DNA of 64,000 nucleotides from Octopus vulgaris (GCA_951406725.2 OX597833.1:62558001-62622000); one strand, 5' to 3'. Positions 2,959 through 62,299 are shown, counted from the first letter of the stretch. Notes: generated by a model from the sequence alone, not told the origin. Translations and numbers: made by a program.

Positions 2959-3057
2959 TCTGTGACTCCCTCCTCAGTGGCTGCTTCCTTGTTCTCCTCT
3001 CCAGCTTGTTCTACCTCCTCTTTCTGTTGCTTGTCTGTTAGTAGAGTGGTCTCTTGA
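2959..3057 (-). CDS. NCAM: Acidic cytoplasmic-domain exon
   Basis: Acceptor ttcctcaccatgctag, donor GA|gtaaga; 99 nt, phase 2-2, matching the phase-2 end of the TM exon: SQETTLLTDKQQKEEVEQAGEENKEAATEEGVT. Read-through of the donor gives E-stop. Confidence 0.75.
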
Positions 3058-3544
3058 CTAGCATGGTGAGGAACGGTGGCGCGACGGGACGGCGACGGAT
3101 GGCGGCATTAATGAAATGGCACAAAGAAAGCGAGGGGCAAAGAAATGAATGAACAAGGTCAATGAATTATAATGTCAGTAATGGATGGTGAAAGAGGAAA
3201 AAATGGGGGGAAAAAAAAAAAAATTTTAATCATTAAATAAAAACAAAAAAAACAGACAACAAAAAATAGATGAATAATGGAAGGAAGGAATACAAGAACA
3301 ACAACACAATGACAAAACTACAGAGATTTTTCTTAATATTTCTTTTGATATCAACTGAAAAGGTACTTGGTCCTTTTGAAACCCACCCACCCATGTACCA
3401 CTCCTGCCTGTCTTAAAATATATTTGATTCAAAACATTCCACCATAATTTCACCAAGTTATGTTCTAAACACCAAGCTAACCCTTTCATTGCAATATTTC
3501 TGCTTAAATACACTCCCTTTCGGTTAATTTTGAAAATAATCTTT

Positions 3545-3935
3545 TTTATCTTTTACTTGCTTCAGACTGTGGCCATGCTGGGGCACAGCTTTGAAGAATT
3601 CTAGTTGAACGAATGGACCCCAGGATTTAATTTTTCTTTTTAAAGCCTGATACTCGTCCTATCGGCCATTTTTACCGAACTGTTAATTTACAGGGACGTA
3701 AACACACCAACACCGGTTGTCAAGCAGTTGTGGGAGGACAAGCACAGAAACACACACACACATATATATGTATATACATGATGGGCTTCGTTTAGTTTCC
3801 GCCTACCAAATCCGCTCAAAAAGCTTTGGTTGGTCCAAAGCTATAGTAGAAGACAGTTGCCCAAGGTGCCACGCAGTAGGACTGAACCCAGAACCATGTG
3901 ATTGGGAAGCAAACTTCTTACCACACAGCTAATCC
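3545..3935 (-). mobile_element. SINE family A (older)
   Basis: Diverged but colinear with family A. Confidence 0.7.
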
Positions 3936-6256
3936 TGCTAAGAATTTAGTAAAATAACTTTGGTTGTCATTAAGTTGGTCTTTGGAAAATAAATTCTAAT
4001 GGAAGGTTTTAATTCAGTTCACTTTAAGACAAGAAGTTTGTGTAAGAGAACCATGAGTGGTCTGAGCAGGTTGGTATCAAAAGAAGCAAAAACGGTAATT
4101 TTCTTTTTTTTCTTCTTTTCACAAAATTCTTCCAAACTTTTTGGTTATTTACAAAATAATTGAAACACATCAACAGAGTAGTATTTAATTAAAAAACATG
4201 GACAGGAAACTCGAGCAACTGAAAATTGAAGGACGTGCATATTTTAAAAGTAAACGACGGCTACTAACGAGGAGACGACTTAATTTTGATTCTAACTGAC
4301 AAGTTATTTCATTAAGCATGTCAACGATGAAGCTACAAGCCAGATGACACGCTGACGGGTTTTGCTGCCCAAACAGTGGAGCATCTATTAACACTACAGA
4401 CTTGACAGTACTCTTATCAGTTCATCAAATGGAATTTTGCTTAACCTTTTTAACCCTAATAGACTCTAATAAATAATTCTAATGAAAAGCAACCAGTATG
4501 CTTTAGAAATATGACTGCCACTATATCAAAAGTCCCATTTTACACTTCTGAGTTCTACAGAGATGTGTTCTGTAATATATACAGCAGTAAATGAAATTTT
4601 TTTTTATTAAAATGTATTTATTGAGATTTATCTGGCAAAGAACCCCACCCCCACCCCCAATGCACAGATTTACCATCTGTAAATGACAACAACCTGTGTT
4701 TTCCTTCGAATATTTTATTGAAATTTACATAAAATTATTTAATATAAGTTTAAATAATTGTTGTTATTTTGTTGTGCTTAGAAAAAAAACAAAACAAAAA
4801 AAAAAACTATCAATTTTCTAAATTTTCACAAATATTTAATTTTGAAAAAAAAAAAAAAAGAAAAAAAGGAAAAAAAGAACAAAGAACAACAAAACTTGTA
4901 AGGAGGCACCACATGAAAGGAACTCTGGTGAATTTTCCTATTGTAGATGAAATATTCTGGTGATTGATCTGTAATCAACTTTAGAAAAACAAGCATCTCT
5001 TTGCCAATAAAAATCAATGCAACGTGGAGCTGAAAGCCGATCAGCGAACCTATTGATTCCTACGGCTTTTGTCTAAAAGTGACGACTATAATAACTAAAG
5101 ATTATTATAATGATACTACAACACTTTGTCGTATATACAGATTCCCCTCCTTACGAAATGAACTTAACACTTTGCTTACCAAACACATTTTGCACCAATG
5201 GTCGAATTTTGTTATAAATAATAATAATCATCATCATCATTTAATGTCCGGTTCTATGCTAGCATGGGTGTGATGGTACCACAAGAGCCGGCCAGGCCGA
5301 AGCCTGTACCAGGCATCTGTAACTGTTTTGGCAGGATTTTTACAGCTGGATGCCCTTCCTAACACCAACCACTCAGTAGGCATTAAAAACAAATTCTTTT
5401 GTGATTGTGTGGTAAGAAGTTTACTTCCTAATCACCTTATGTCTTGTTTATTTGCATTTTTTTAGTAGCAGGGGGTCAGTTCCCACTGATCTTTTTATAG
5501 GACCACTGAGACTGGTAGACAGGAACAAAGACCTGGCCTCAATATGTACAAGAGACCAGACTTTGATAAAAGGGTATCGAAGGTGCAAGGTGGTGAGGTG
5601 ACAGGTTAAGTCTACCATCTAAGTATGCCATGGTTGGGTTCTGAAATCAGAAAATAGAGAACCAGAACAAATAGGGTAAGGCATAACCATTCAGTTCTAC
5701 CAAGCCTTCATCTCAGCATGGTACTTTTTCCTTTTTATCAACCCTGAAAATGTGGTGAGAGTCAAAGTATGACCTCAGTGACATCTGAGCACAGAAAGGT
5801 GGAAGAAATAACACAAACTATCCAGTCTGATGCTCCAACAATTCTACCGATTCTCTGCCTGCCATCATCTACCATCATCATCGTTATCATTTAACAACTA
5901 CATTCCATGCTTGCATGGGCTGGATGGTTTGAGAGGATCAGATCATGCTCCAGGGTCTGTTTTTACAAGGTTTCTACAGGCTGGATGCCCTTCCTAACAC
6001 ACCAACCACTTTACAATGGTCTCCTGGATGCTTTTCTCTCCGTTTTTCATTTTTTGGACCCCCAGCACTACTGCGGTTGCCATGCAACTCACCCAATGTC
6101 TTAATATAATACATCAGGTTACAATTGAGGGGTTGGAAAATTATATTAAACTCTCTCAGATCTGGGCCACTAGAGCCTAACTTTACCCTCCAGTTGAGTT
6201 CCTGAGCAAAAAATAATAATAATAATAAACAGCTGCAAATACAGCTCAAAGAGTGA

Positions 6257-6620
6257 CATCATCATCATTGTTTAATGTCCGTTTTCCGCGCTAGCACGGG
6301 TTGGATGGTTCGACCGGGGGTCTGGGAAGCCAGGGGCTGCACCAGGCTCCAGTCTGATCCGGCAGTGTTTCTACAGCTGGATGCCCTTCCTAACGCCAAC
6401 CACTCCGCGAGTGTAGTGGGTGCTTTTTACGTGCCACCTTCACAGGTGCCAGGGGAGTCTGGAATTGGCCACGATCGGTTGGTGCTTTTAACGTGCCACC
6501 GGCACGGAAGCCAGCCAAGGTGGTGCTGGCATCGGCCACGTTCGGGTGGTGCTTTTTATGTGCCACCGACACAGAAGCCAGTCGAGGCGGCGCTGGCATC
6601 GGCCACGTTCGGATGGTGCT
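6257..6620 (-). mobile_element. SINE-like family B ((TGA)n tail, internal gtgccggtggcac subrepeats)
   Basis: Shared ggcgttaggaagggcatccagctgtagaaac...ggacgttaaacgatgatga end; copies at 8551-8700, 9115-9296, 16330-16695, 28536-28767, 54170-54608. Confidence 0.75.
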
Positions 6621-7089
6621 TTGACATCATCATCATCATCGTTTAACGTCCATTTTCCGACAATTGTAGAAAAACTAATGGACAGACAGAATCAGCAGCG
6701 TCTTTTATTTCTACATGTGCTGTTCATTGCCACTTTAACCAGAATCCAGCATGTTTAACCTATTCCTGCTATAATGGGAATACGGCAAGACAAGATTAAT
6801 ACATAAGGAATAGTTAAAGAAGATCCAAAAGTACTGGTTTGCAATCAGTCAATGATTACAAGCCAGAGCTGTAAAATACAACACGCAAACCTGCAAAGAT
6901 GCAGGGTCAAAGGTTAGATGTTTATTATTATCATTATTATTATCATTATTATTCTTGTTTCACACTGACATGAAGGCCATATGAGGATTAGAGAAGCAAT
7001 ATCTTAAAATTTAAAACACAGTTAACAATTTACAAACAGATTATTAGTTAAAATAAATATAAGTGGAAAAGTATTCTCACTCTCTCACC

Positions 7090-7498
7090 ATATGTATATA
7101 CACAAAAAACACATCTACAAACACACACATATATGCATACGTATGTGTATGTGTGTGTGTATGTATGTATGTATATATATAAATATATTGTATATATATA
7201 AATATACACACATATACATATGTATACATATATATATATATATACACACATACATATACATATATACACACATATACATATATACATACATACACATGTA
7301 TGTGTGCGTGTATATATATATATATATTGTATATATATATATACATATACACACATATATATATATACACACACACATACATATACATATATACACATAT
7401 ACATATATACATACATATACATGTATGTGTATATATGTGTGTGTGTATATATATAGATAGATATATATATACACACACATACATACATATACACATAC
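7090..7498. repeat. Compound TA/CA/TG microsatellite
   Basis: Directly visible. Confidence 0.95.
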
Positions 7499-7941
7499 AA
7501 AATATTTTAATGAAATCATAACAGTTTCCAAATGTTTACAATAAAAGAATAACATAATAAACAATTTCTCTGGAAGAACAAAGTGAACATTCAAAGCTAA
7601 AAATATAAACACAAGACAGGAACCGGAGATTTAGCAACGCAATATGGGGCACAACACACACACATACAGTAGCGTGTTTGTGAGATTATATATATATATA
7701 TATATATGGCTAAAACACAAAATAAGAAAAGGAACTTAGCTGAAAATGAGTATGAACAGCAAACCAGGGGAGGGGATTAACTGTCACATGACCAAGCATT
7801 CCTGCACAAAAGGGTCATGGAGTCCTTGCTTATGTGTCTTGGAAAAACCCAAGATAACCTTTTGTCTAGGTAACCTTTAGGTTTGAGACAGATCACACAC
7901 ACACAAACACACATTTTTATATAAACATTATATATATATAT

Positions 7942-8335
7942 TCTTTTACTCTTTTACTTGTTTCAGTCATTTGACTGCGGCCATGCTGGAGCACTGCCTT
8001 TTTTAATCGAGCAACTCGACCCCGGGACTTATTCTTTTGTAAGCCCAGTACTTATTCTATCGGCCTCTTTTGCCGAACCGCTAAGTAACGGGGACATAAA
8101 CACACCAGCATCGGTTGTCAAGCAAACACAGACACACAAACACACCCACGCATATATATATATATATACATATATATATGACGGGCTTCTTTCAGTTTCC
8201 GTCTACCAAATCCACTCACAAGGCTTTGGTCGGCCCGAGGCTATAGTAGAAGACACTTGCCCAAGGTGCCACGCAGTGGGACTGAACCCAGAACCATGTG
8301 GTTGGTTAACAAGCTACTTACCACACAGCCACTCC
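7942..8335 (-). mobile_element. SINE family A
   Basis: Colinear with 68-513. Confidence 0.85.
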
Positions 8336-8550
8336 TAATGTTCTGATATAAAGTGCAACACTAGTTCCCAGTCAAAATGTATAGTAAACCCCCTTCCATA
8401 ACATGGAGTATAGCTGAATAGGTGAGAACATACACTGGGCTTGACAGATAGTACAACTAAATAGCTTGAGTGGATACAGGAGCGTCCAGTTTGGATAACA
8501 GAAGAGAGAAAGAAAGTAAAGTACAGTGGGAGCCAAAATAACCGGAACAT

Positions 8551-9296: not shown

Positions 9297-9297
<1 letters not shown>

Positions 9298-10835: not shown

Positions 10836-11052
10836 CTTGCACCAGCTTCCACATCCGTGGACTTGTCCTTGGCAGAAGAACCTTTCTTGCAGGTGCTAAC
10901 CAAAAACATTGTAACACCTTTCTCAAACTTGAAGTAACAGATCAAGTCGAGAATTATAAGGATAATTAAGATCAGGGCAATTATCAAACCGGCAACTCCG
11001 CCAGAACTGATGCCAGTCGAAGCAGCAGTTATTGGAACTTCTTTGTTCTCTA
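10836..11052 (-). CDS. NCAM: Transmembrane/juxtamembrane exon of an NCAM/Fasciclin-2/apCAM-family adhesion molecule
   Basis: Acceptor tttcttttctattttag, donor AG|gtacgt; 217 nt, phase 1 to 2. Translation (V/I)ENKEVPITAASTGISSGGVAGLIIALILIILIILDLICYFKFEKGVTMFLVSTCKKGSSAKDKSTDVEAGA. The pattern G-hydrophobic helix-DxxCYF...G..M....C...K.KD.E.G matches my recollection of the NCAM TM/proximal tail (VVDITCYFLNKCGLFMC...KGKDMEEG). Confidence 0.9.
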
Positions 11053-12158: not shown

Positions 12159-12203
<45 letters not shown>

Positions 12204-27713: not shown

Positions 27714-28387
27714 TAAAATTTCGTAAACGCTTGTAATTTTTCTCTTTTCGCTCAATAAACACGCACAACGCCCGGTCAGGGAATCGAAACCGCGAGTCCT
27801 CTGCCCTAACCATTCAGATTTCAAACACTTGTCAGTAGCTATAAAGGTCAATCCAACTGTGTGATACTTTTACAAGTTTGTTATCAAAATAATAAATTCC
27901 ATCTCCTATGATTCTAGACTAATTCAGAGTGAGAATCTCCTCATTATCACATGCAATTTGGTCATTCTTCTCCAGTCAAGAAAACAAACACGATTTAGAA
28001 ATCATGAAAATTTACCAGCAAATCAAATTCCTGCTTAACCCGAACATATTTTTGTATGAAACCAAATCAGAATAGTTAACACCTCTCACATGCAATATTT
28101 TCTTCACATTCTCCCTTTAAGTAAAAGAAAAAAAATTTAATTATCTTTTTATGTTATCATACCTTAACTGCAACTGAAGGAGAATTGAGGCCAAAGGAGG
28201 GACCAATTTGGCATTAATTACCACAAACGTAACACGAACCAATCCAAACACTAAGTCAGGCTCCAGGGAGAGAGAGAGAGAGAGAGTGCTAATAATCACA
28301 AATCCAGGCTTAATACTAAGCTGAAGCAAAGGAGTTTCTACTTTGTAGGAAGAACAGCTAAATTTTCATCCAACTACACACCCTACT

Positions 28388-44195: not shown

Positions 44196-46727
44196 ATATA
44201 TATATATATACACCAGGACCAGTTCGCCTTCACCCCACACCCCTCTGCCACAAGCCTAAGATGTTCAACAAACAAAACAAAAAACAGACACACACACGCG
44301 CACAAAAAAAAAATAGAAAACAAGTAGAGGCTGTCGTAGGGTGAATTATGATGATAAAAAGACACTCAAGGAATTATTGATGGTTGAATCCATTAGCAGA
44401 AACAACTAAACTTCAAGTGTACCATAACAACTCCCAAAATGCATAACAGAAGGATAGAGGTGAGTGGCACTTCCTAAACATAAGATGAATTATATATATG
44501 TATGTATTTTATTTTTAATAGCCTCCAATGGAACTAATCAGGGGGGGAAAAAGGTTTTAAAACCCACAAGAATACAAACATTTAAGTCATTTTAAATAGC
44601 TAATAATGTTTGTTTGTTTGCCTTTTTTTTTATTATTATTAAACAAAATAAATATAAGCAACTTAAAACCTTCCAGAATATTATTATTATTATTATTAAT
44701 AACTGATAATCGTCGTAATTTTGGAGAATAAGCTTCTGCAATTAATAATTGTATATGATGAAGTGTAATAATAATAGATTTATAACCTTGTAGTAGTAGT
44801 AGTAGTAGTAGTATTAATTGTATTAATGCCAAAGATAATAGTCACTCAGTCAGACAGAAGTATCAATTTCCATCCCTTGTAAACTGGTGGCTGAATTCAA
44901 GTTTCCTAAATTAAAATGATGAGACTTATAAAATTTATGAAGGCAGTGATTTTAAAAAATTCAACAGGTATACTACTAATTACATTGTAGAGACTATATT
45001 TACATACCTGATGCTATTGTCAACATCAACAATCACTTCCAAGCATAACCGAAAAAAGCAGGTAAAGAAAGAAAATCAGGAAGGGGTGGAGAAATAAAAG
45101 CTATTTTAATACCATAGAAGCTGATTTTTAAAAAATATGAAATAAGCAAAACTGAAGGATTTTTTTTTTTAAATACTTGCCTAAGACTTGAGAATTTAAA
45201 AAGAACAGAAAAATTTTATACTTAAATTGGATAGGGAGGGGGTTACACTTTGGAGTAAGATAGTTAATTGAGGAATATTTTGTTGGTTTGGAGAGATTTA
45301 AGGAATGGTTGACTAGGTTTACTCAACTTTTAGAGATAGAAGAGAAAAATGAAATGAAAGAACAGAAAAATAAACCTCACCCACCCAATGGTGAAAAATA
45401 TACATTTGCAGAGAGAGAGAGAAGAGAGAGAGAGAGATGGGAGGGGATTTAAAATAAATTATAATAGTGTTGTGTAGTAATAGATCAAGCACTGCAGAAA
45501 AAAAAATAAAATAAAGTAAAATAAATTTGCTATGCACACTTCACCAACTGAGCCAAATTATATCAGGGAATGTGTAATGCCAAACTTAATAATAGGATGC
45601 ATGTGGGAGCATATGTACATACATACACACACACACACACACACATATACATATATGCACACACACGCACGCATACATACATATACACACAGGTACGCGC
45701 TCTCAAACAATTATGAAAATTCATTTTCATTTATTATTATTATTAGTTTTTTTGGTGGGGGGGTGGTTTGTTCTGGTCACCCTAACTCAAGTGGCTGCAC
45801 AATGGAGAGAGAGAAGGGGGGAGAGAGAGAGAAAAAAAAAGATAAAAATGAACTTTCACTCTTGTAAGAAGTTGGGAGGGAGAGGGGGGAGAGAGAGGGA
45901 GAGGGAGTGGACAACATCCGACCCCCTCTCCTCGTGACCTCCCCCCCCGTTCTCTTTCTCTCCAGTTTTAGAAAGTTTGAGTCATGACAGCTTTACTGAT
46001 TGATTTAATCTGGGGGGGAGAGGGGGAGAGAAAAAAAAAAAAAAAAAAAGAAGGTTCCGAGAGTCTCTACACAGTCCAAGAGAATTCTTTAACTGTTACT
46101 GAAAGATATCAATCCTCCACAGGGTAACATGATGGAGGCACAAAATGTGTGCACATAGGAGCTGAGCTAAGCTTTTTATTTAAAAACTTTAAAAAAGAAA
46201 AAGGTCCTTAAAAAAAAGGTCTTGCTTCAATTTCCAAATATTGTAGTTCTTTCGACTTTTTAAAATAATGAATGTTCATTCCACACACTTGCATTTGTTT
46301 TTTGATTTTTTTGATTTTTTTTCTTTCACTGATATTACTGGAGTAAAGTCTTGTTTGTTTGAGGTTGTTTTTTGTATATATATTTTTTTGTTTTGTTTTT
46401 GGTTTGAAATATTTTCCTCCTCCTCCTCCTCCTCCTCCTCCAACTTCCTTCCAGTCAAACACATTGATGTTGTTTTGTTGGCATCTTGTTTTGTTTGTTT
46501 TTAGGTTTGTTATTTTTTTTTTCCTTAAAAGTTTTTTTTTTTCTTTAAGTGATTTGGTGCCTTTTTTATAATTTTTTTTCCAATTTTAATAGAAGGGGGC
46601 AAAAGAAACACAGCAGGTGGGCAAACGGGCGGGCGGATAGGCAGGCGGGCGGGCAAACGGGCACGGGAGGCTGTCTTTCATAATTTTTTTTTTTTTGTTG
46701 TTGTTTTTGTTGCTGTTATTTTTAAAC

Positions 46728-46834
46728 TCAGAGCAGTGCCAGCAGACAACACAAGAAGGCATTCACTGCCATTAACAGGTGAGAATTGCAGTTGAAAGAT
46801 GCAGTGGAATCCGTTATTCGACTACCCGTGTCCA
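46728..46834 (-). CDS. NCAM: Alternative terminal exon encoding a GPI-anchor-like signal (GPI isoform of the same gene)
   Basis: Acceptor tttatttctgttcttttcag; phase-1 start like the TM exon; (V/M)DTGSRITDSTASFNCNSHLLMAVNAFLCCLLALL-stop: small residues, spacer, hydrophobic C-terminus and no tail. GPI and TM isoforms are established for NCAM, Fas2 and apCAM. Confidence 0.8.
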
Positions 46835-47880
46835 CTGAAAAGAACAGAAATAAACAAGTAAAAATGGGCAGGATTTATTGAAGATCTTTCGGCTTAATTA
46901 TTATTATTACTACTATTATTACTATTAATAATAATTATATTTTTAGAACTTAGAAACAAATGTGTTCAATATATATATAGATATAAGATAAAGGATGAAT
47001 AGTGGAAGGGACGGGGCGGGGGAGGAATCGGGGCAGTGAAGGTAGATGTGGACTCAACATTCATTTAAAAATACTTTTGAAATACTTTCTTAAAAGACTA
47101 ATAATTAGCAAAGACAATTGAAATTATTAAAGCAAAAAATGAAGATTGCAGATATTTCTAAAAAAGTAAAAAGCAAATTTCCAGAGGAAAAAATTAAGTA
47201 ACTTCTGTAATTGTTAAGCTATTGGATGTGTAATAAACAGCAGTAATTAAAATCAACAAAAGCTTCACCTTATATGATATTAAAAAGGTTCTTATATATA
47301 TATATAACAAGACCGAAAAAAAAAAAAAAAAGAATTTGAAGGAAAAAGTTGATAGCACAATAAAGCAAGAACTATTTTTGGTATTGAGTGCGTTGTTTAA
47401 ACGGCCTTTGTTTTAAATCTGAACAGAAACTAAGATACTGAGATTAAAAATTATTTTTACCAGCTAAATAAATAATATACATACATATGAAAACAATGCC
47501 TTATGTGTTACTATAATCATTTAACAAAAAGTCTGTTGATTAGACAATTTCAAATTGTACCAAAAATTATTAATTCTATTTAGTACTGGTCTGCATTATT
47601 ATTTAGGCCATTTGGTATGAAACAGAATTTCCTATAAGCATTTCCATTCTTATTCCAGATTTAAAGTATTAAAGAGAAATTTTTAATCTAAAAAGCAGGA
47701 AATTCTAAACTTGAAAATAACATTGCCATAAATTTTAAATAATTCAGCAAATTAGAAATTTAATTATTAAAATTAACCAGCTGATTTAATAAGAATTAAA
47801 ATAGAAGACTTATCGATGGCATTATACAGTATCAATAGAATTAGCTGAATAAAATGACTCCCACTAGTTTATCAATAATA

Positions 47881-49360
47881 CAGGGTGTAAGGGTATTTGA
47901 GGACAAGTATCAGTATGTTACTCTCTTCAAACCAAAATGTTTATATTTCTTTCAGATGTCCCACAGCAAATAAAATGCTAATACAAGAAATGAAAAGACA
48001 TGCAGTCATTGTTGACGTGTTTTAGAAATTGTCCAACACTTGAAATGCTACAAGAGCTTTTGTACATAAAGTGTGGATGAGGTTAGAAGCCTCACACAGG
48101 AATGTTTCATCTTGGACATTCATTCACCCACCACAATTAATCCAACAGGTTGAAAATGATGAGCCCCAGAAAAATCAATGAGGGCCATTGTTGAAGAACT
48201 TCAGGAGTTGGATTGGACTATCAGTAATGTGGGCACATATGGAACAATTTGATACATGTCCTATGTACTGAGTAAACACCAATTTATTTGTACAAAGACT
48301 CAAGAAAACTGACCAGCATCAAGCAGTTACTTAAGGTGTAAAACCCTTGCAAACATGGCTTGTTTTGGTATTGGTAGAGATTTTTCTCATCAGAGATGAA
48401 CCAAAAGTCTAACAGGAGAAACAATATATGGTTATGTATAGACCCTTCAATGTTCCTAGAGTTGACGCACACTAAATTTCCAGCAACTGAAATGATTTTA
48501 GGAGTTGCGAATTATGAAGGTCATGTTGTGTCATTTCACATCTTTCTATGTCTTTAGAATTAATGATGTTGATTATGTAGAGGTGCTGGAAAAGGTTGTT
48601 AAACCCTGGACGGTTGAAGTACGTAGTAGAAGGCCATATGTGTTTCAACAAGACTTAACACCCACATAACCCAAGAAAGGGTTATGATCACATAACTCCA
48701 AACTCCTGGCCTCCAAACATGCCAAATTTGAATTCTATGGATTACTATGTTCAGAACATCACTGAAAGGAGACCAATCAACACCCTTACAATGCTATAGC
48801 TTCACTAAAGACCACCATTGTCCAAGTGATGTCAAATAAGGACCATTTAGTGCAAGAATTCAACAATTCCAATCCCACTTTGCAGCCATCAATGAAATTG
48901 TAGCAATAACCATTTTAGCCATTTTTCAACTGAGCATAGATAAATATGTATTTCTGTAATCTTTGATTTATGTTTCTTACAGCGGTTTAAAGGACACGAT
49001 TAAAATATTCAACATACATGTTATTAATATAGCGTTTCATGCATATATGTCTATATGATGTTATAACTGTAGTTAGGGTTTTAGGTATAATGATAACACT
49101 TGAGTATAAGTGACGTTGAATCATTATATTCTCCCTTACTCAGAGAAAGGCCCAAATAAATAATATAACCTAAGAGAAAGCTTAAGGTAATAAAACGAAA
49201 ACCGCCGTAAAGTAAAAAGTAGATTCATAGAATAATGTTATAAATTAGCTTTATTAAGAACATGTGTAGACATTTTTATTAAAATACATTTGGTTTTTGC
49301 TAGGTTTAGAGTTGTTTCATTAAATTACCACATGTGTCCGCAAATACCTCTTGCACCCTG
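47881..49360 (+). mobile_element. Degenerate Tc1/mariner-superfamily transposon (maT/DD37D-like)
   Basis: TA-flanked TIRs cagggtgtaagggtatttgaggaca / tgtccgcaaatacctcttgcaccctg; transposase remnants KPW..RPYVFQQD (~48601-48654) and WPPNMPNLNSMDYYV (~48707-48751). Confidence 0.8.
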
Positions 49361-49564
49361 TATTTCAGTAACTGATTCGTTATTTGATCTTACAAATGTG
49401 AACCTCACCCCATGACTACCATCTTCACCTCCTATCTGGTTTATTCTGCCATGTTGACTAGGTCTCGGACTAGTGACAACATGAAATTGTGCACCTTGCC
49501 AACAAGGACAAGGCTAGTAGAGATGTGATAACAACATCTAGAGATTTTCAATAAACACAAATCA

Positions 49565-49792
49565 TTAAACCTTTCATTACCAACCCGGCTGAAACCGGCT
49601 CTGGCTCTGAGTACAAATGTCTTATTTTCATAAGTTTTGAATTAAAATCTTCCACCAAACCTTAGCCACAATTTATGTTCCTAACACTAGCTTAATGATA
49701 ACTATGTTATTTTACTAAATTCTTTGTTATATTTAAAATAATTGGAAGAAACACAGAGCATCTCAAAATAAATACAGTAACGAAAGGGTTAA
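49565..49792 (+). mobile_element. piggyBac-type MITE, family P1
   Basis: TTAA flanks, ends ccttt.../gtaacgaaaggg; near-identical to 59062-59290. Confidence 0.75.
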
Positions 49793-51439
49793 AGAACTGC
49801 TTTGTAATATAGGCACAAGGCCCATAATTTTTTCTTGGGTGGGTGGCTGGGTGGGGTAGTCGAGTACACTGATTCCAGTACTTGATTGGTACCTGGAGGG
49901 ATGAAAAGCAAAGTTGACCTCAGCAGAATTTGAACTCAGAATGTGAAGCAATTACTTTATATTTAAGGCACAGAGCCTGAAATTTTGAGGGAGAGAATTT
50001 AATTACATTGATTTAAATGCTCAACTTATCATATTGCCCCTGGAGGGATGAAAGGCAAAGCTGACATCAGCAGATTTGAACTCAGAATGTTAAACAATAA
50101 CCCTAATAACATTATTACTGTAACTACTTAAAAAATATATTGATAAACAGAAATGTTTTTTTTTTTTAATTCTTTTTCTATTTTAGTTAAGGGAGAAAAA
50201 CATTTAACAACACTAAACATTAATAAAATTTGAAGGGCTTTCCTGTAGAAACACTAATATCTAATAATGATGGGGTGAACTGAACTTCCGACTCTGAAAA
50301 TTAAATCTTTATCTCTCTGTATATATACATACATCCTATTAAACATATTAAATCTGCATTTCATAATAATACACAATTAATTAATTCTAAATCTAAAACG
50401 AGACCCTGTGGGAAAACAAAAGACAAAACACACACACACTGAAGGGAAAAGCAAATAAACCATGTGAAAAAGCTTCTCAATGACATTTATCCTTACTCTT
50501 ATTAGAAATCATTTTGAAAATTAAATACCAAATTGCCTGAGGTAAAATTACAATTTTCTTAATTATTAAACCAATGTCATGGATATTTCCAAATCTAATA
50601 GCTTGTGCCTCCGTTCTGATCATTGTTATCAAGGCTCTTATTCCTCCTGAATGTGGACTTACATCTGATGTAACGTAATGGTTTCACTCATTAACAGTTA
50701 ATAACTAAATTATCTCAGGTAGACCATCACACAGGTGTACACAAATTCCTCCAAATTAACATTAAATAAATGAAAAAAAGAGCTTATAAATTTAAACATA
50801 AATTACACAGAGACAATCTAAATGAGCGTGTGTGTTTATATATCTGCACAAGTCAAATAGTACAGCCGAGATAGTCATTGAAATAGATAAAAACTCATGA
50901 AATGATAACAATTATAATAAATAGTACATACATAGGTCATTAATAAACATCACAGCAACAGTTATTTGATTTTGAAAGTGGTACTAAGAATAAGGTAAAA
51001 CCTGGTCTAGAATGCTCAGGTGCAACAAGTACTTGCTAACAAGGATAGAAAGTGGTGCATGGCTGCTACTACTACTACTACTACTACTGCTGCTGCTGCA
51101 ACTACTAATGGCTATGTGTATGGGGAAAACTATACTAGTAGATAAAGGAAAATATAGTTGGGATTCAAGTGTTGGTCTAATACTACTAGGGTCTAAAGGG
51201 ACTTGAAGCTAAAAAGTTAACAAAAACCAAAACAAAAAAATGTGTGTTGGCATGTGTGCATGTCTGAAAGCAAAAATAAAACCAAGAAATAAAATAAAAT
51301 ATGCAGGTGAATACACACACGCATTTTATTTATATATATATATGCACCTACACACACGCACACAACATTTAAAATAAAATGGAATAACTTTTGTAAACTT
51401 TGTTTTTTAGCAACATAACATAGCTATAATTAATGATTT

Positions 51440-51636
51440 CAAATTTTGGCACAAGGCCAGCAGTTTCAGGGTAGGGGGGGAAAAGTTGATTACATCAACC
51501 CCCAGTGCTCAACTGGTACTTGTTTTATCAACCCCAAAAGAAGGAAAGGTAAAGTCAACCTGGGTGGAACTTCGAATGTAAAAACGGACAAAATGCCGCT
51601 AACATTTTGTCCGGCATGCTAACGATTCTGCCAGCT
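51440..51636 (-). mobile_element. SINE family C
   Basis: Diverged copy; others at ~49800-50090 and 55890-56100. Confidence 0.65.
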
Positions 51637-52952
51637 ATAATCAATAAAAATTAACTTGTCTTAAATATAGTGGTTACTTTAAATGTGTAACACTGTGACA
51701 ACAAAACAAAAGCTAGTTAGCTAATTATAGATTGTGATTGTACACTGGTTGGATTGATTTAATTAGCTACATTAACATAAGCCAATGAAAACCCCACTCT
51801 AACACAGGTGACTGATTCGACAGAGGCAGGATTTGACCTCTTTAACTGATAAACCTCACTGTGCCATCTCAACCACTTCCAACATTGACACTGTATTACT
51901 GCAGGTAATACCTCTACATGGTCACTAGAAATAACAGCTAAAGTCTCTCAAATTATGCCCTATTGTCTTAATGGGAAGATATAACCATAACATTCACATA
52001 ATTAAGAGCAAAATGGTTACAGCTGGCTGGATCAAGATTAACCTGGGACTAGATTAACAAAAGGCTTCAACGTTAACCCTTTTGACACCAACCATCTTGA
52101 GACCGCTTATTTTAAAATGATACTTCCATAGAAATTACATGCTAATTTATACTCCAAAAACCATCCTAACAACAACCAAATTACTTGACTAAATTCATCA
52201 AAATCAGTGTATTTCAAATGAAACAAATGGGTTGAAGTATAGAGGAAGGACGTTAAACACTGAATGAGATTTTAGCTCAGTACCTCCAGTCGACTATAAA
52301 CAGTGCTACATGTTTCAAATTACAGTTTAGAGATCAACACCTGTGCTGGTGATTATTTTATCAAACATGCTAGAAGGATCTCGGCAGGGTTTCAAATGAC
52401 AACGGTGCAGTCACTAATAAGTTCCACAAGGGATGCTCTACTACTAAATCCTTTCTAACCTGAAGCATTTCCAAGGTTGCCGTCATTGGAACTGCACCTT
52501 CAGAGTGCTACACTAAAATTTAACTAGTTGATATTTTTCTTTTTTTTCTTTTTTCTTTTTTGTACTTGTTCATTTTTAATTTACTTTTACTAATTATGGT
52601 TACAGAAAACACCAGAATAACAAATTACAAAGTGGTATTTTCACAGCAAAAGAATATATTTCTTTCTCGTGAATTAATGAATAAATAAATTTTAAAAATC
52701 CAGAAGACACTGCTAAAATTGAACCATGGTAGATGTGTAACAATATAATTATATTACTGAAACCACAACCCCTAAAATAGTATGTGGGTGTAAAAATCTT
52801 GACAGTGAATAGAAAACAAAATGAAATGTAGAGAATATAGCATAAATGTATAATTAAATCCTTTAGGTGTATAAAAAAATACATAAGTATATAGAGTCTG
52901 TATAAACAAGAAATGAGAAAGAAATACATTGAACTAGTTCATAAATATACAC

Positions 52953-52976
52953 CTACCACGACATTAGTAAAATAAA
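52953..52976 (-). CDS. Candidate 24-nt microexon (xYFTNVVV)
   Basis: Branch-like GCTAAC at 53013-53008, long T-rich tract, gatcag acceptor; frame-preserving donor AG|gtgtat is weak and a competing gtaggt donor would give 20 nt. Confidence 0.35.
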   Translation of the reverse strand, partial: FILLMSW

Positions 52977-53131
52977 CTGATCAAAAACAAACAAAAAAAA
53001 AGACAGAGTTAGCGTGAGATTAATGTAAGAAGTTTTGAAAGAGAAAAGAGAGAGAGATGAAGGATAAGCAAGAGACAAGCAAATGGCAAACTAAGTGTAG
53101 AATCGAAGAGGAAAATAATAATGATATGCTA

Positions 53132-53167
<36 letters not shown>

Positions 53168-53990
53168 TGCACTGGATGAAGACCCATTAGATGAAGCTTT
53201 ACATAAACTCATGCTGCTTCTTAATGTTTGGACTAAATGAAAAAAAAATTCTTGATACTAAGTAAAATATAAACTATTGTATATGTGTATGTATGTATAC
53301 ATACATATACGCATACACACACATTTGTGTATACACTCTCATACACATTTGTGTATACACTCAGACATATGAATCCAAAGCAAAAATGGAAACAAACCTA
53401 ATAAAACATCCAATTTTACTAACTTTGAAAGACTTGCAAAATGTCAAAAAAAAAAATTTAATAATGAGCAGTAATTAATTACTATATCATTTAGAGTTAC
53501 ACGGCAAAACTGAACTCAACGTGTTATGTATGATAGAAATTATATTAATAATCTCAACCGAAAACAATGTTAGAAATTGGTTAATTCACTCTTTGTATAA
53601 TAGCACCACTTTCAAGTGTTAGTACTTCTCTGGGAAGTATTCTATAAACACCAAAGTCCACCTGGGTATAATTGAATGTAATAAGGTATTTGTACTCAGT
53701 TTCCACAAGTAGTTTCTCCCAGACACAGACACCAAGTTTGCATGGGTCTTGTCAAGTAAATTTCACCTACAAGGCTATAGTCATGCCAAGGCTATGTGCT
53801 GTACAAACAAAGTCACACAACTAAAACTTTACAGCTGACACAGGGGGGGGGGGAATTTCTAAGGTTTGTTTCACCTCTAAAATCTTGACATTTCAATATG
53901 TTGTTCCGTATTTACAGAATGAAATGTGCTTATTCAGAGTAGAGTTTTCCCACAAAGCCCAACGATATCAAATCTATTTTAAATACTTAC

Positions 53991-54020
53991 TTTCTTGAGC
54001 TTTTGGGGGTCTGATTCTGT
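53991..54020 (-). CDS. NCAM: 30-nt in-frame microexon (DRIRPPKAQE)
   Basis: Acceptor tgtctgcttgccctgttag with two TGC motifs, consensus donor A|gtaagt, phase 1-1, no stop, in frame with flanking exons. Confidence 0.6.
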
Positions 54021-54169
54021 CTAACAGGGCAAGCAGACATTATCAATAGAAACAGTTACGCCTATATTCTCAAAGAACAAATGCATTTAGCTTATATTCT
54101 AACTACCTTCACCTCTACTAGGAACTGATTCAAATATCTGAAGTTATAACAGTGTTTTGATTTGTTATC

Positions 54170-54608
54170 AAAATCGAAGAATCAAATCAAATCGAAATCA
54201 ATCCACATCAATGGAATTTGTAGTTTGTGGTACCAGTGCCGGTGGCACATAAGAGAACCATCCGAACGTGGCCGTAGCCAGCACCGCATCGACTGGCCTC
54301 CGTGCTGGAGGCACGTAACAAACACCATCCGATCGTGGCCGTGCCAGCCCTGCCTGGCCTCCGTGCCGGTGGCACGTAAAAAGCACCATCCGAGCGTGGC
54401 CGTTCGCCAGCCTCGTCTGGCACCTGTGTCGGTGGCACATAAAAAGCACCCACTACACTCACGGAGTGGTTGGCGTTAGGAAGGGCATCCAGCTGTAGAA
54501 ACACCGCCAGATCTGACTGGCCTGGTACAGCCTTCGGGCTTCCCAGACCCCAGTTAAACTGTCCAACCCATGCTAGCATGGAAAGCGGACGTTAAACGAT
54601 GATGATGA
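54170..54608 (+). mobile_element. SINE-like family B
   Basis: Longest copy, four subrepeats, (TGA)n tail. Confidence 0.75.
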
Positions 54609-55486
54609 CTCCAGTGCTTTTTAAACAGGTTACAACAAGTCAACTGTTTTATAATTAAAGCTTTCTTCACTGCAGCTTAGTAATTATGTTGTTGTAGGTT
54701 CCATTAGAAGAAAGGAGAAATATATTTTATCAAATCACATACCTAACAGTAGAAAATAACAGGAAGGCAACACATCAGTGTCATGTACCCCAGTATAACA
54801 AAACAAGGAGCTACTATTAAACATTGCTACATCTCTCAGTCCATCAGCCCCTGAGTGCAAGGAAATGACTAGTGCCTGTACTTAAAAATTAAGGGAATTA
54901 TCTGAAATTATCTGTGAATCTAATCCCATCAGTATTACTGTCAGCTGATCGAGGACCAAGGCCCTTCTTCATTTGACACTTTTCACTTGAAACTTCATCT
55001 TTGCCCCCAAGCCATCCATCATAATTAAAATCTAAAATTTGAAAGCAATTTACATTTTTCTCATATCCCTTTAAATGTGTCGAGTCGCGTTAAGTTCATG
55101 GTTGAAACATTGAGGGGAGGGAGGGTGTGGGTGAACACAGAACAACACCTAAAAAATACACTATCTGCAAGTAGACATTAGTAAACAGCCAAATTCTATC
55201 TTTATTCTGTCTGATCAATGTTTAGTTGGACTGGATTTTCACATGGAATTTACCAATTCCCACTACATGAGATATTCAGATAGTCAAAAGTGAAGCTTCA
55301 AAATTCCCAGAGGGGGGAAGAAAAAAAAACAGGAATATGGCCTGAATAGGTTAAAGAATTGAAGAGGAAGTCTCTCTGAGGGGAGAAGAGAATATTCACA
55401 AGGGGCTAATGCTGAAAGCATTTCAATTAAAATTTATAAAAAATGAACTCAAAGACTTCTCAAACCTGAAAATGTTGAAACAGTTT

Positions 55487-55517
<31 letters not shown>

Positions 55518-56119
55518 AATTGGTTCTCTATCATCGACTGGGCCCAACATTCCCAAATAAATTCTCTCCACTTCGAGCACAACTTCAACATCATTAGAAA
55601 TCAACCAAGATCAATAACCCAGACAACTGCCTCTTCTTCCTCCTGTCTTTCACTGACAATCTATCAACCTCTTTCTTCATGGTCATCCTGTACCTCTTTT
55701 ACAGGACCCATATTCTCTACAGCAAGCGGTGTTAATGGTGCTGTTGTTAGTTGACCAACAACACTTACAGGGTCCAAACTTCCCAAAATTATTTCTTTCT
55801 AAACATATTTTTTAGTCCAATGTTCTGCTGCATGGAATGTAAAGTAATTTTCTATATTCCTTAATAATAATAATAATAATAATAATGTTTCAAATTTTGG
55901 CACAAGGCCAGCAACTCTGAGGGAATGGGGTAAGTTGTTTACACCAGCCCCAGTGCTTCACTGGAACTTATTTTATCATCTCTGAAAGGATCAAAGGCAA
56001 AGTTGACCATACCAGAATTTGAACACAAAATGTAAGAACAGATGAAATACCACTAGGCATTTTACCTGGCATGCCAACAATTCTACCACCTCACTGCCTT
56101 AATAATAACAAAACTATGT

Positions 56120-56645
56120 TCTTTGGAGTACGGGATTCAAGCCGCTTCTCCTTATCTCTTCAAAGACATACATCATCTCGAAATAGTTCAGAAGCTGGCT
56201 ACCTGCATGGTTCTTGGTCTCAAGAATTTGTCTTATGAAGAAAGGCTGAAGACGCTCGACCTTTATTCTCTAGAAAAATGACGCCGTGGTGATCTCATTC
56301 TTGCTCACAACATCATAAGCAGAAAGTGTAACCTCTCGAAAGAGCTGTTCTTCACTCCTGCTCCAGAACGTTGGCTGCTGGGTCACACCGAAAAGCTCTA
56401 TCTGAGACGATTTCATCTCAATCGAAGGAGAGGGGCTTTATCCGTCCGGGTTGCGGATCCGTGGAATAAGCTGCCAGACGAGATAGTGAAGATGCCGACG
56501 ACCGCTCGGTTCAAAGTCTCCCTTGACCACAAATGGCCTGAACTCTTTGCATGAACACCACCCTGTACATAACTCCATGTCCCCCTACATGGCCTTGCTT
56601 TTTGCTTTTTGAGCCAAAAAATTAACCTAACCTAACCTAACCTAA
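56120..56645 (+). mobile_element. CR1/L2-group LINE 3' fragment
   Basis: LEYGIQAASPYLFKDIHHLEIVQKLAT..LKNLSYEERLKTLDLYSLEK*RRGDLI, typical CR1 ORF2 C-terminus, with (AACCT)n tail. Confidence 0.85.
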
Positions 56646-57005
56646 AGCAAAGCAGTTTTGTACATTCTTCAGTTAATGTTCTGCAACATGGAATATAAAG
56701 TACTTTGCGGTATTCCTCAGTTCAATGTTCTGCTACATGCCACCCCACCACCAGCGCAATACAGTACGCCTAATATCAATATGCCAATATGCATCAGACA
56801 AGGTTCATGTTTTGGTCATAGATCTGTTTAGCCACAACTGACTGGCAGAACTCGAAAGCATCAAAAACTTAAAAGAAGATATCAATTCAATTTTTACACA
56901 AGCTGTTGTCTCCTCAGCGAAACAAAAAGATCCTCAAATTTGCCTTCTATAATACATGTCCAATCCAATTATACTTGCACAAACAAATTTGACCCAGCAT
57001 CACTA

Positions 57006-57043
<38 letters not shown>

Positions 57044-57046
<3 letters not shown>

Positions 57047-57434
57047 CGCAAGAATGGCTGTGTGGTAAGTAGCTTGTCTACCAACCACATGGTTCCAGGT
57101 TCAGTCCCACTGCGTGGCACCTTGGGCAAGTGTCTTCTACTATAGCCTCGGTCCGACCAAAGCCTTGTGAGTGGATTTGGTAGACGGAAACTGGAAGAAG
57201 CCCGTCATATATATGTATATATATGCGTGTGTGTGTGTGTGTGTGTGTTTGTCCCCTAGCATTGCTTGACAACCGATGCTGGTGTGTTTACGTCCCCGTT
57301 ACTTAGCGGTTCGGCAAAAGAGACCAATAGAATAAGTACTGGGCTTACAAAGAATAAGTCCCAGGGTCGATTTGCTCGACTAAAGGCGGTGCTCCAGCAT
57401 GGCCGCAGTCAAATGACTGAAACAAGTAAAAGAG
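57044..57434 (+). mobile_element. SINE family A
   Basis: Full-length copy between (TA)n tracts. Confidence 0.85.
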
Positions 57435-57463
57435 TATATATATATATATATATATACACATAC

Positions 57464-57495
<32 letters not shown>

Positions 57496-59061
57496 CAATG
57501 ACAGTCACTAAAGCAATGTGAAAACTGTTTATAAATTTTTAGTTTAAATCTTTCAAAAAGGTCATCGTTTTCACAATTTCCCAAAAGACGGAAGATATAA
57601 AACCATTATCAGCATACTGCTGCCATGATGTATGATTCAAAAAACACAGAAGGGAGGAAGGTGGGCGGGACAATTGTTTGATTATCAGATTGTAGACTGA
57701 TACTGTGTCTAGTTTCTGGGTCAGAGTAGACTGTCTTTTTTAACATAATGATGAAATATATCTAAACTATCAAACACACAATCTAAATCACATTTCTCTT
57801 TCCCTCCCTCTCATCAAACCCAAATGATTCCTAGATTCGAGAGAGGGGGGGTGCAAGAGAATAAGAGGGCAAGTGAGAGAGATTGCTATTGGCTGCACCA
57901 TCGTTAACATTATGTCCTTAAAATACAGAAAAGTTACTGCTCATGATGATGATTATGATGATGATGATGATGATGAGTGACTGACTTAACCAGATGTCAT
58001 TTACAATAAATGCTTGTGTCAAATGTAAATTGCTCCATTTTCTCAGAAATAATAGCTCTTTGACCTTACAGATACCTAAAATTCCCACCAGAAGGTGAGT
58101 AGCAGAAAGAGGAAACAGAGAAAGGAAGGAGTAAGAGAAGAGAAATAAACACCATCACCACCACCACCACCGCCGTCTGCCCACACAATGTAAGATTTAA
58201 GTGAAAATTAAATCATCCCCAGCCCATCGTTGATTGCAAGTTAGAAGTGTTGTATTGTTGGAAGTTAGAAGTGTTAGAAGACAGAGGAAGAGAAGTGGTA
58301 AAATAATAGAAAGTTTGGTTCATGACAACTTTGTTAGAGGACAAGGAGGAGGCGGAGACCGTGTGCCAAGTTAGCGGGGAAGGTGGGAAGGGATATACTT
58401 TGGAAACTAGATTCAGACAAGGCCACTACCAAAGATTCTAGCAAGTCAGTGTTACAACAGAAAATGGCATCATTATTTCTAATAAGGCTAGAAACAGTAG
58501 TGGGAGGAGAGTGGAGGTCGGTCAATACAATTGACCATCCTCCAACCCCCCAACCCCCACTGCCCTAAACCAATACTTGACTGGCAGTTTATTTTAGTGA
58601 ACCTCGAAAGGATGAAAGGCAAAGCTGATTTCCACAGGATTTGAACACACAGAAAAAAAAAAAATTTTTTTAATTAAGAAAAATGTGGAGAGCAGAAAGA
58701 GATACTGCAATGCTCTAATGATTCTTCCAATCCATTGTTGGAAAAACAACAGGAGTTTTAGTAGAAGAGGATTTGAAACATTTGCAAGAAAGAGAAAAGT
58801 TTTGACACACACATTACACATATATGTTACACATATGCAGCTTTCAGAAAAGAAAATGTTAAATATTCAATAAATGGTCAAGGCATTGCCCATGAAATGT
58901 AATTTGTGACAAGAGCAACCGTTTGATTTCATACATAAGATATACCATATTTGCCTGCATATAAAACACACTTCTATTTTAAAAAAAGGTAATTTGTGTG
59001 TGTGTGTGTGTGTGTGTATGGGGGATTTAGTATGTTTCATCATACATTACTGAAAGATATC

Positions 59062-59290
59062 TTAACCCTTTCAATACCAACCCGGCTGAAACCGCCTCTG
59101 GATCTCTAGTACAAATGTCTTGTTTTCATAAATTTTGAATTAAAACCTTCCACCAGACCTTAGTCACAATTAATGTTCCTAACACCAACTTAATGATAAC
59201 GAAGTTATTTTACTAAATTCTTTGTTATATTTAAAGTAACTGAAGGAAACGCAGAGCATCTCAAAATAGATACGGTAACAAAGGGGTTAA
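59062..59290 (+). mobile_element. piggyBac-type MITE, family P1
   Basis: TTAA-CCCTTT...GGG-TTAA; homologous to 49565-49792. Confidence 0.75.
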
Positions 59291-59526
59291 AGTGGTTTTG
59301 TAGGGGGAAAAGGTATGATTGTGTGTGCACGTAAATATGATGCTGTGACAGTAGAATGGAATAAAATATGAAACCATATATGTAACATGAATAAACGATG
59401 TTCTGTAAGTATTTCAATTTTTTTATATTGTCATCAACACACTACACACAGCTGACAGACAGGCAGATGGAAGTTCAACATTCCTTTCACCTTTCATTCA
59501 GACCAATTTAAAAGAAAGTTTCTCAA

Positions 59527-60815
59527 CCCTTTCGTTACTAACCCGGGTCGTACCCAGCCGAAAAAATTTTTTGTTCATAATACCAACCCGGTTGAGAGAA
59601 CCTATTGTTATTTAAATGTAAATTTGAACCCAAATTTCGTTGGTACATTCATTAAAACATGTGATTTCACTTTGTAAATAGTTGGCTTATAGTATCCAAC
59701 ATTGCTTGAAGTGATATCTCAACTCAGTGAATTTTGGGAGATTTTTTTCCACATTTTTTTTCAGCATCGATTTTTCTTCAACTTTGAAAATGAATAGAAG
59801 TTTCATGTTATCAAGCATTGATTCCGAATTTAAAGCTTTTTGAACGGAAAATAGGGAGATATCGAGAAAAAGAATGAATGAGGTCTTAAAGCATGTGGTG
59901 TACAATAATGAATAGATATTTTTTTATCCGTTAACCGAAAGCAGCGATTCCGAAGAAACAAAGCGGCAATGGCGACAGCAAAGACAATTTTACATCGGAA
60001 TGAAGTAAAAAACTTTTAAAATGTTTTTATTAGGAATTTTTCTGAGGAGATAGTTTATCTATAGTCTTTCTTAGGAAGCGAAACCATTAGACTATTTTTT
60101 TTTAGTATGCTTGTTTGGAGCGATCACTGTGGAAGCAAACTGTTTCGCAGATTGTAAACAAACACGAAATGGGGGATCAAAATTCGGAAAATTTGTGAAG
60201 CAAAATACTAAGTACTGCAGTGGATTTAGTTTTTATACAGGGAAAATAATGTTAGTCGGCATGGCCTAGGGAACGATGTGGTCTGGAATTTATCACTTCC
60301 ATACCATAACCAGGGCCATATATTATTTTTTGACCTATTTCTTTAGATCGGTCAAACTTGCGGTGGATTCCAGTATTTCAGTTTATTCCACCTTTATGGT
60401 ACACCCATTGTGCATTAAATTCAACTGATAAATCTAGTGATGTGCACAATTCTTCTTTATCAAAATTTTGTTGCATACCCATTTGAATATTAGCTGATGA
60501 TTCATTTTCTATGGTAATGTTTAAACAAAATTTTAATATTTTTACCTTTTGCTCAATTTAAAATGTTAATATTTTTACCTTTTGCTCAATTTACCTGGAT
60601 TTACCTGTAATTAAAGTCACTTTGAGACAAAAGTTATGCAATAGAATTGATTAAGAACCCTTTCTTTTAATTATGTTCCAAATATCATATTAATATGTTG
60701 ATAAGTAAAAAAGTTACAGTAATTTAATGAAACAAGCCTAAATTCATGATTATTTTAGAATTTAATTGAAACTCATGAGGAATGTATTTTGGTCAGAAAT
60801 ATAGTAACGAAAGGG
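59527..60815 (+). mobile_element. Internally deleted piggyBac transposon
   Basis: TIRs CCCTTTCGTTACTA / TAGTAACGAAAGGG, TTAA at right end; frameshifted transposase remnant KWGIKIRKICEA..KYCSGFSFYTGK..GLGNDVVWNL..NQGHILFFD (~60165-60335). Confidence 0.8.
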
Positions 60816-62185
60816 TTAAGTAAAATGTAAATCCCATATCAGGTGAGTTATATTTGCTGAGGAATGAGATAGGAAAGGATGAGACTTTACCATTTATAAC
60901 TGCTGACTTGCTGTAAGCAATTTCCCACAAGTTTGTGATATTTTGGCCAGTTTTCAATATTTTATGGGTAACAATTATCATGCCCAGCAGACTTATGCTC
61001 ATTAAGTTTCCTAGCCTACAACACACAGAGCCTTCCATACATAGTATGACTGCATTAGATGCAGAGCAATTTTTTTTCATATATTTACAACTAGAAAACT
61101 GCATCTTTACACACTGGCAAATATGGTATACACATACACGCAATTCTAACAACCCAAGCAAATGTATAACAACAGCATTGAATAACAACCCTCATGATTT
61201 TGTTACTGATGAAAAGAATTTTAAGTGAAACGGAGACATTTAAAAATACAGGTAGTAAATATGTACACAGTTAGTGAGAAACTAAATATTAAAAACAAAA
61301 AGAAAAACATACAAAAAATAAAAGAAACAGACAAACAAGACAGACAGACAGACAAAGAAAAAGAACTGAGCCAGACATGCATAACTATGATTATCATCAT
61401 CATCATAGTAGTACAGATGAAGTAGAACATTAATATGAAAGTTCATTCGGTAAATGTTTAATTTGTCAAGAGATTGATTGGAGAGAAACATCACAAGTCA
61501 AGAGAGTAAGCAATGATTAATAATAATAATAATAATCATAATAATGATAATAATAACAATGACATGATCAAATCAGCAGTGAAGCCACAATTGAGAAATT
61601 TCATTATCAATACATTATATTCGCCATTTAAATAAAAACAAAAAACAAAAAAGAAAAATAAAAGGGTCAGAAAGAAAGTCAAGAAATATTTAAGACAGTT
61701 CAATAGCTGAAATCATTAAAAATGAAATCTTACTCCTATCATTAGTGAGAAAATGTGGGGGAGGCTGGAGTCACAAGAAATCATATACACACACACGTGT
61801 GTGTGTATGTGTAGAAGATTGATGATGCAAGGACTGCATAAACATATCAGAGAGAAGTCAGAATTTATTGGTTGGACCAAATAAGAAACGTGAGAGAAAA
61901 TGAGCGTGTGAAATAGAAAATCAATGATTAATAAAACTGTAGTTAGTGTTGAGGAGAAAATTGACGAATCCAGGGATTGATTAATTGGGAAGACAAAAAA
62001 TGAGAGAAAAAAGCTTCTTTTCGAGTGGACAAGGAGAAACAGGATGAGACGAAGTATCACTGTCTAGAGAGAGAGAGATATATATTTTACAACAGTAGAT
62101 AAAAAGTTTGAAAATATTAAAAAGACAGATAATTTTAAGTAGATGTGGTTTCAGCATGCAAAAAAACAATGTAACAGCTTTTCAC

Positions 62186-62299
62186 CAGTGGTCACTGAAG
62201 TTACAACTTTGGTCACAGTGACAGCAATGCCACTTGTTGTGCTAGTACTGATACCAGTAGGGTTCCTAGTAGAAGGGCTCATAGTGGTAAAATACGGAT
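62186..62299 (-). CDS. NCAM: Ser/Thr-rich mucin-like stalk cassette exon
   Basis: Acceptor ctttattttttgcgcag, donor G|gtgaaa; 114 nt, symmetric phase 1-1; xPYFTTMSPSTRNPTGISTSTTSGIAVTVTKVVTSVTT; joins in frame to the GPI or TM exon. Confidence 0.7.

Follow-up and report, generated by a model that had tools for sequence, protein, structure and literature searches.

Alternative transmembrane and predicted GPI-type ends, stalk cassettes and an optional tail exon in an octopus gene of the NCAM/Fas2/apCAM family

Does a single octopus adhesion gene offer its product a choice of membrane anchors, and are stalk, anchor and cytoplasmic tail combined independently of one another? The question is raised by a 64,000-nucleotide stretch of Octopus vulgaris DNA (hereafter ‘the window’), in which an initial annotation made from the sequence alone had seen phase-1 symmetric cassettes feeding two competing exons of an NCAM/apCAM-like gene: a terminal exon with a GPI signal and, some 36 kb further on, a transmembrane (TM) exon followed by phase-2 tail exons. 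The window contains the 3' portion of a minus-strand Octopus gene belonging to the NCAM/Fas2/apCAM family, and we added 160 kb of flanking DNA to map the gene’s exons (Table 1).

The family call of the initial annotation is borne out. A domain search of the gene’s protein finds five I-set/Ig_3 and two fn3 stretches in the ectodomain, and the database names are NCAM2-like. The TM-exon peptide, for which a protein search had been proposed, has NCAM2-like proteins and not another family as its best matches: it is 100% identical to O. vulgaris and O. sinensis proteins named neural cell adhesion molecule 2 and 99% identical to an O. bimaculoides protein, with NCAM2-like names in all three matches, all from Octopus. 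A wider search with the same peptide returned 16 matches, of which the four that are both full-length and named are three NCAM-like proteins and the query itself, one further full-length match carrying no name. When the full-length protein is used as the query, five of five matches are NCAM2-like or fasciclin-2 (four octopod NCAM2-like proteins and one beetle fasciclin-2, which aligns at 28% across residues 86–831). Among PDB entries, NCAM2 structures are colinear with the octopus protein over residues 15–298 and 313–701; contactin-1 and Robo2 score slightly above NCAM2, but over short stretches, and where the alignment is colinear along the full length, the best relatives belong to NCAM/Fas2. 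Conversely, the two best genome matches of a Lineus NCAM2/Fas2-like protein are both at the octopus NCAM locus, in a search whose stricter first look may have missed other loci. The base of a nine-row homologue tree is unresolved, its rows including neither a proper outgroup nor apCAM.

Table 1. Exons and candidate exons of the gene, in the order of transcription
Feature	Position	Strand	Remarks
Last FN3 exon	window coordinates 81421-81223 (L003:7421-7223)	-	ends in phase 1; upstream of window
Stalk cassette A, 27 nt	L003:6638-6612	-	phase-1 symmetric; upstream of window
Stalk cassette B, 30 nt	L003:3867-3838	-	phase-1 symmetric; upstream of window
Stalk cassette C, 63 nt	L003:1435-1373	-	phase-1 symmetric; upstream of window
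Stalk cassette D, 39 nt	L002:5546-5508	-	phase-1 symmetric; upstream of window
Stalk cassette E, 114 nt	62186..62299	-	phase-1 symmetric; AG/GT flanks; open frame
30-nt candidate cassette	53991..54020	-	AG/GTAAGT ends; open frame; unsupported, possibly a pseudo-exon
Alternative last exon, coding part	46728..46834	-	phase-1 acceptor; predicted GPI-addition signal and stop
3' UTR of GPI-type form	44500..46727	-	from contigs and AATAAA positions; 3' end of candidate span approximate
25-nt exon	28090..28114	-	in O. vulgaris model CAI9737963.1 only, with cryptic donor 46767
TM exon, 217 nt	10836..11052	-	phase 1 to phase 2; TM helix and juxtamembrane tail with the family’s D-x-x-C motif
T99, optional cytoplasmic exon, 99 nt	2959..3057	-	phase-2 internal cassette
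Three further tail exons	L012:5528-5490, 2645-2582, from 1157	-	complete the TM isoform; C-terminus SKES

The exons run from the last FN3 exon through five stalk cassettes (A to E), the GPI-type terminal exon and the TM exon to T99, beyond which the tail continues in three exons outside the window. The 114-nt cassette that had been proposed, E, is real; the earlier reading, however, lacked A to D, which lie upstream of the window. Since all the stalk cassettes are phase-1 symmetric, any subset of them keeps the frame into either anchor. Counterparts of A, B and C are present in Argonauta, B is acidic and carries three tyrosines, and E, identical to its O. bimaculoides counterpart at 25 of 40 aligned positions, is 49% Ser/Thr and, as judged by this composition, likely to be O-glycosylated. 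The TM exon, which has a single match in the genome, starts 35,782 nt past the acceptor of the GPI-type exon, and the predicted phase-2 tail is likewise there, in the form of T99 and the exons that follow it. The genome-derived chains reproduce database proteins: the chain that starts at exon 2, passes the last FN3 exon and ends in the exon at 46834 equals the O. vulgaris model CAI9737964.1 exactly from residue 23, and the TM exon joined to T99 and the tail exons gives the last 149 residues of O. sinensis X7.

A few observations concern other parts of the map. A 6-nt piece of the first Ig domain (L006:3380-3375, minus strand), with a strong pyrimidine tract, is a microexon candidate and the sole fit in a 10-kb intron for the two residues by which O. 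sinensis X1 and X2 differ. The intron just before cassette C (L003:1455-1436, minus strand) translates as GSSIIS and the Argonauta model has GPSIIS, a likeness that reflects either a conserved acceptor or a longer Argonauta form of the exon. Interspersed repeats of high copy number, over which the summed contig depth is very high, occupy approximately 49500–50050, 51400–51650, 54200–54600, 56000–56600 and 57200–57600 of the window, and the frames at 56057–56554 give the impression of a retrotransposon fragment.

The proposed GPI-signal exon holds up as a phase-1 terminal exon with a stop. By rules of our own rather than a trained predictor, it is predicted to encode a GPI-addition signal: omega candidates (DST/STA) 25–26 residues from the C-terminus are followed by a polar spacer and a hydrophobic end whose last 16 residues are uncharged (mean KD 2.65), with no cytoplasmic tail. 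Could the short isoform made with this exon be secreted, or retained in the ER, instead of being GPI-anchored? Its hydrophobic end is modest (the best 19-residue KD is 1.84, as compared to 3.30 in the TM helix), the GPI call is rule-based, and Drosophila FasII-B is described in excerpts of PMC12847815 as having no clear TM or GPI anchor. Set against this are the small-residue omega candidates with their spacer and uncharged terminus, the conservation of the exon in O. bimaculoides (32 of 34 residues identical) and the fact that, in excerpts of PMC2132711 and PMC12847815, GPI forms are the family norm; we consider a secreted or ER-retained product highly unlikely, and the GPI-type end remains our reading. 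Downstream of the stop, AATAAA is found at 46180, 45735, 44634 and 44513; contigs containing the exon match to 46452 and then for ~380–430 letters more, extending beyond the AATAAA at 46180 and reaching a low-complexity tract near 46050.

How often each end is used, and with which cassettes, can be read from 28 database proteins (13 from O. sinensis, 12 from O. bimaculoides representing 12 of 13 cluster members, two from O. vulgaris and one from Argonauta), all of them predicted models rather than validated proteins. Twelve have the GPI-type C-terminus, 15 the TM C-terminus and one another; together with the contigs described below, this substantiates the proposed competition of two ends for shared upstream exons, and one gene thus has alternative GPI-type and TM C-termini. 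The independence of stalk, anchor and tail fared less evenly. Cassettes A, C and E do occur with both anchors (six GPI-type and eight TM proteins for A, two and six for C, three and two for E), as does B (two and one), whereas D is found with the TM end in seven of seven proteins, and E, present in five proteins, is never accompanied by B, C or D (0/5). As distant exons may go unphased in gene models, these counts neither prove nor refute independence. Whether the structure was already annotated, which the initial annotation had left open, can be answered with yes: the RefSeq models of O. sinensis (X1–X13) and O. bimaculoides (X1–X12) include both ends and most of the cassettes. They contain cassettes A–E and the tail exons, T99 being in O. 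sinensis, under no name other than ‘neural cell adhesion molecule 2’. Neither of the two O. vulgaris models, on the other hand, has any cassette, and one of them fuses the GPI-type exon to the TM exon.

Transcript evidence comes from contigs of public runs (of the 20 rows, 14 are RNA by guess and none is on record as such), six sets of which we compared with the window; such contigs drop rare variants. In three of four runs (X2, X5 and X12) contigs match 46452–46834, leave the genome at 46834 and continue off-genome for 2674, 2274 and 29 letters, respectively, and the long unbranched contigs of X2 and X5 suggest samples in which the GPI form is dominant. For the 46300–62400 interval the alignment lists 32 pieces, the GPI-exon contig of X10 not being among these 32, and the best 15 of 366 joints are all repeat-related: interspersed repeats mask exon junctions there, those of E and of the 30-nt candidate included, which counts neither for nor against these exons. 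In four of four runs there is a contig that matches nothing but the TM exon. In X14 the loose end of this contig at 10836 corresponds to the opening 28 nt of T99, which demonstrates the junction 10836>3057, one of the four that had been proposed as checks; in X8, X10 and X12 the contig is 247 nt long and carries 29 letters ahead of the acceptor and one past the donor. We simulated de Bruijn contigs under nine splice models, assuming k=31. Models with one shared upstream exon for both anchors and with T99 both included and skipped give exactly this 247/29/1 geometry, and also the 29-letter overhang of the X12 GPI-exon contig. Three of the nine fit and differ just in the upstream exon (the last FN3 exon, A or the 30-nt candidate), so the geometry cannot name the shared exon; the six that fail include TM-only, T99-always and the fusion of CAI9737963.1. 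From the contig geometry we infer that, within a sample, a common upstream exon is joined to either anchor, and that T99 is both included and skipped. A retrocopy as the origin of the spliced contigs is unlikely given the single TM match in the genome.

The cassettes that the initial annotation had placed closer to the anchors did not fare as well. Its 30-nt exon is in none of the 28 proteins from four species, an absence that constitutes the main evidence against it, and in all five proteins with E this cassette joins the GPI-type or TM exon directly; three of the four proposed junctions (62186>54020, 53991>46834 and 53991>11052) rest on this exon. Its splice signals are a perfect GTAAGT donor and a weak acceptor (-1.6), and it ranks 58 among 2985 open symmetric phase-1 AG..GT candidates in a 70-kb stretch, in which the supported cassettes rank 2, 4, 9, 29 (D) and 119 (E). 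Since D and E bracket its rank and the acceptor of the real exon T99 scores lower still (-2.6), the score neither supports nor excludes the candidate. We tried and rejected the idea that it is a repeat fragment: it has a single match in the genome. For the model as originally drawn, with a real 30-nt exon preceding either anchor and free combination of stalk, anchor and tail, one can cite the GTAAGT donor, the open frame, the single-copy DNA, the lower T99 acceptor, the compatible contig geometry and the presence of A, C and E with both anchors. This is outweighed by the exon’s absence from every protein, the direct joining of E, the 57 better-scoring candidates, the TM-only use of D and the separation of E from B, C and D, and we judge the full model unlikely. 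As to the ‘possibly 24 nt’ cassette, which had been given without coordinates, the window holds no valid one, the top candidates being without protein support. What comes closest among annotated exons is the one of 25 nt at 28114-28090, which goes from phase 0 to phase 1 and is in one of the 28 proteins; a 24-nt version of it would follow GG, not AG.

The protein in question, CAI9737963.1, would have the GPI-type exon serve also as an internal exon that continues, from donor 46767 through the 25-nt exon, into a TM protein. The C-terminus of the model can be reproduced from the genome with GT/AG ends and the acceptor of the 25-nt exon scores 9.9, which is what can be said for such a form. The donor, however, scores -0.1, no second protein among the 28 has the arrangement, the 272-nt TM contig that it predicts contrasts with the 247 nt observed in three of four runs, and the break predicted at 46767 is absent, GPI-exon contigs being unbroken in the three of three listed. 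The fusion is therefore extremely unlikely as a regular product: CAI9737963.1 (46834-46767 and 28114-28090 fused to the TM exon) is probably wrong, and the 25-nt exon is likely a gene-model artefact or a rare form.

We thus return to two alternative ends. Exon boundaries, phases and frames are established, both ends occur in the proteins of three Octopus species, and spliced contigs are observed at both acceptors, as is the junction of the TM exon with T99; that the gene’s transcripts are spliced either into the terminal exon at 46.8 kb, yielding the predicted GPI form, or past it into the TM exon at 11 kb is highly probable. The choice would likely be a competition between splicing and intronic polyadenylation. 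If the acceptor at 46834 is used, translation would stop after 35 residues and the transcript would likely end at a poly(A) site of the following intron; if the exon is skipped, the spliceosome would go 35.8 kb further to the TM exon. Under either anchor, the five stalk cassettes (27, 30, 63, 39 and 114 nt) may alter the length, charge and likely the O-glycosylation of the linker. As in Fas2 and apCAM, the GPI form would serve adhesion without a cytoplasmic tail, and coupling to the cytoskeleton and trafficking would belong to the TM form.

How does this architecture compare with that of relatives? In vertebrate NCAM the MSD sits between the FN3 domains, whereas the octopus cassettes follow the second FN3 domain. 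Vertebrate NCAM1 and NCAM2 otherwise resemble the octopus gene in having GPI and TM isoforms and small optional extracellular exons; according to PMC2120321, exons 12A-D (MSD) of vertebrate NCAM are found with each anchor class. Aplysia apCAM, as excerpted from PMC2132711, has the same five Ig and two FN3 domains (the apCAM sequence itself was not aligned) and is alternatively spliced into one TM and two GPI forms. For Drosophila Fasciclin 2, excerpts give five TM and two GPI forms (10.64898/2026.05.24.727532) that, as in octopus, differ at the C-terminus, along with an optional PEST+/- exon in the cytoplasmic tail and a PDZ-binding motif at the end of the TM forms (PMC12847815; 10.64898/2026.05.24.727532). 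The Lineus and beetle homologues also have sets of TM and short hydrophobic-end isoforms. As Lineus, beetle, apCAM, Fas2 and NCAM show the same kinds of end, the octopus architecture is the family’s ordinary one. A study of octopus NCAM isoforms was not found by title or abstract start, in a search outside which most subscription journals lie.

The cytoplasmic tail is where octopus departs from these relatives. In excerpts of PMC4810158, apCAM uptake is limited to the TM form and controlled by a MAP kinase motif in its tail, whereas the octopus tail, with or without T99, has no S/T-P site (the MAPK consensus), nor has that of Argonauta, as compared to five in the Lineus tail. With a single proline in the octopus tail such a site arises in 18% of shuffles, and its absence is not in itself improbable. 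Without the site, the apCAM trigger does not carry over to octopus, which weakens the link to apCAM-type plasticity suggested at the outset. Differences from Fasciclin 2 are seen as well: the octopus tail ends in SKES, not a class-I PDZ end, and T99, although acidic, is without proline and hence not a valid PEST region. Nowhere in the octopus tail did we find one, in what is a weak test: the same routine also finds none in beetle Fas2 tails.

T99 itself is present in seven of 15 TM proteins and absent from the 12 O. bimaculoides proteins (12 of 13 cluster members); it is identical to its Argonauta counterpart at 28 of 32 residues, the corresponding figure for the ectodomain being 399 of 722. 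Read-through of its donor (window 2959-2955) meets a stop at once, possibly an alternative short ending of the tail. In the neighbouring TM exon, the one contig difference, at 10940 in run X10, is synonymous, and no A-to-I-type changes are among the listed contig differences. Inclusion of T99 forms S-Q-E-T-T-L-L across its upstream junction, the only LL in the tail, and the S-Q/D/E-x-x-x-L-L spacing has this one match, exclusively in T99-containing tails, in both Octopus and Argonauta. A dileucine pattern of this kind occurs in 1.8% of 20,000 tail shuffles, the pattern having been chosen after the sequence was seen. The same SQxxxLL spacing characterises the phospho-dileucine signal of CD4, which binds AP-2 once phosphorylated (excerpts of PMC5680300 and PMC4114066); the CD4 spacer is, however, basic and PKC-phosphorylated, while that of octopus is acidic and hydroxylated. 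As a candidate, the motif made by T99 could be an endocytosis signal that is switched by splicing.

To a specialist the GPI-versus-TM switch is no surprise, being the family norm and already present in RefSeq models; the fresh lead is the optional T99 with its candidate CD4-like motif. In excerpts of the preprint 10.1101/2025.09.04.672712, polysialic acid escaped detection in both tissues sampled from cephalopods, retina and optic lobe (n=1 for each), which makes a spacer role of the stalk cassettes worth testing. One could speculate, and we hold this to be rather doubtful, that octopods lost the MAPK site behind learning-related apCAM uptake and replaced it with the CD4-like phospho-dileucine switch of T99: splicing would set which neurons pull the adhesion molecule off the synapse, and the five stalk cassettes would tune adhesion distance where polysialic acid does not. 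For research on cephalopod learning, the analysis provides the exact exon structure of what is likely the counterpart of apCAM and identifies one O. vulgaris gene model as probably wrong, and the MAPK-uptake rule of Aplysia cannot be assumed in octopus. If true, T99 as an endocytosis switch would be a different solution to the learning-related removal of adhesion.
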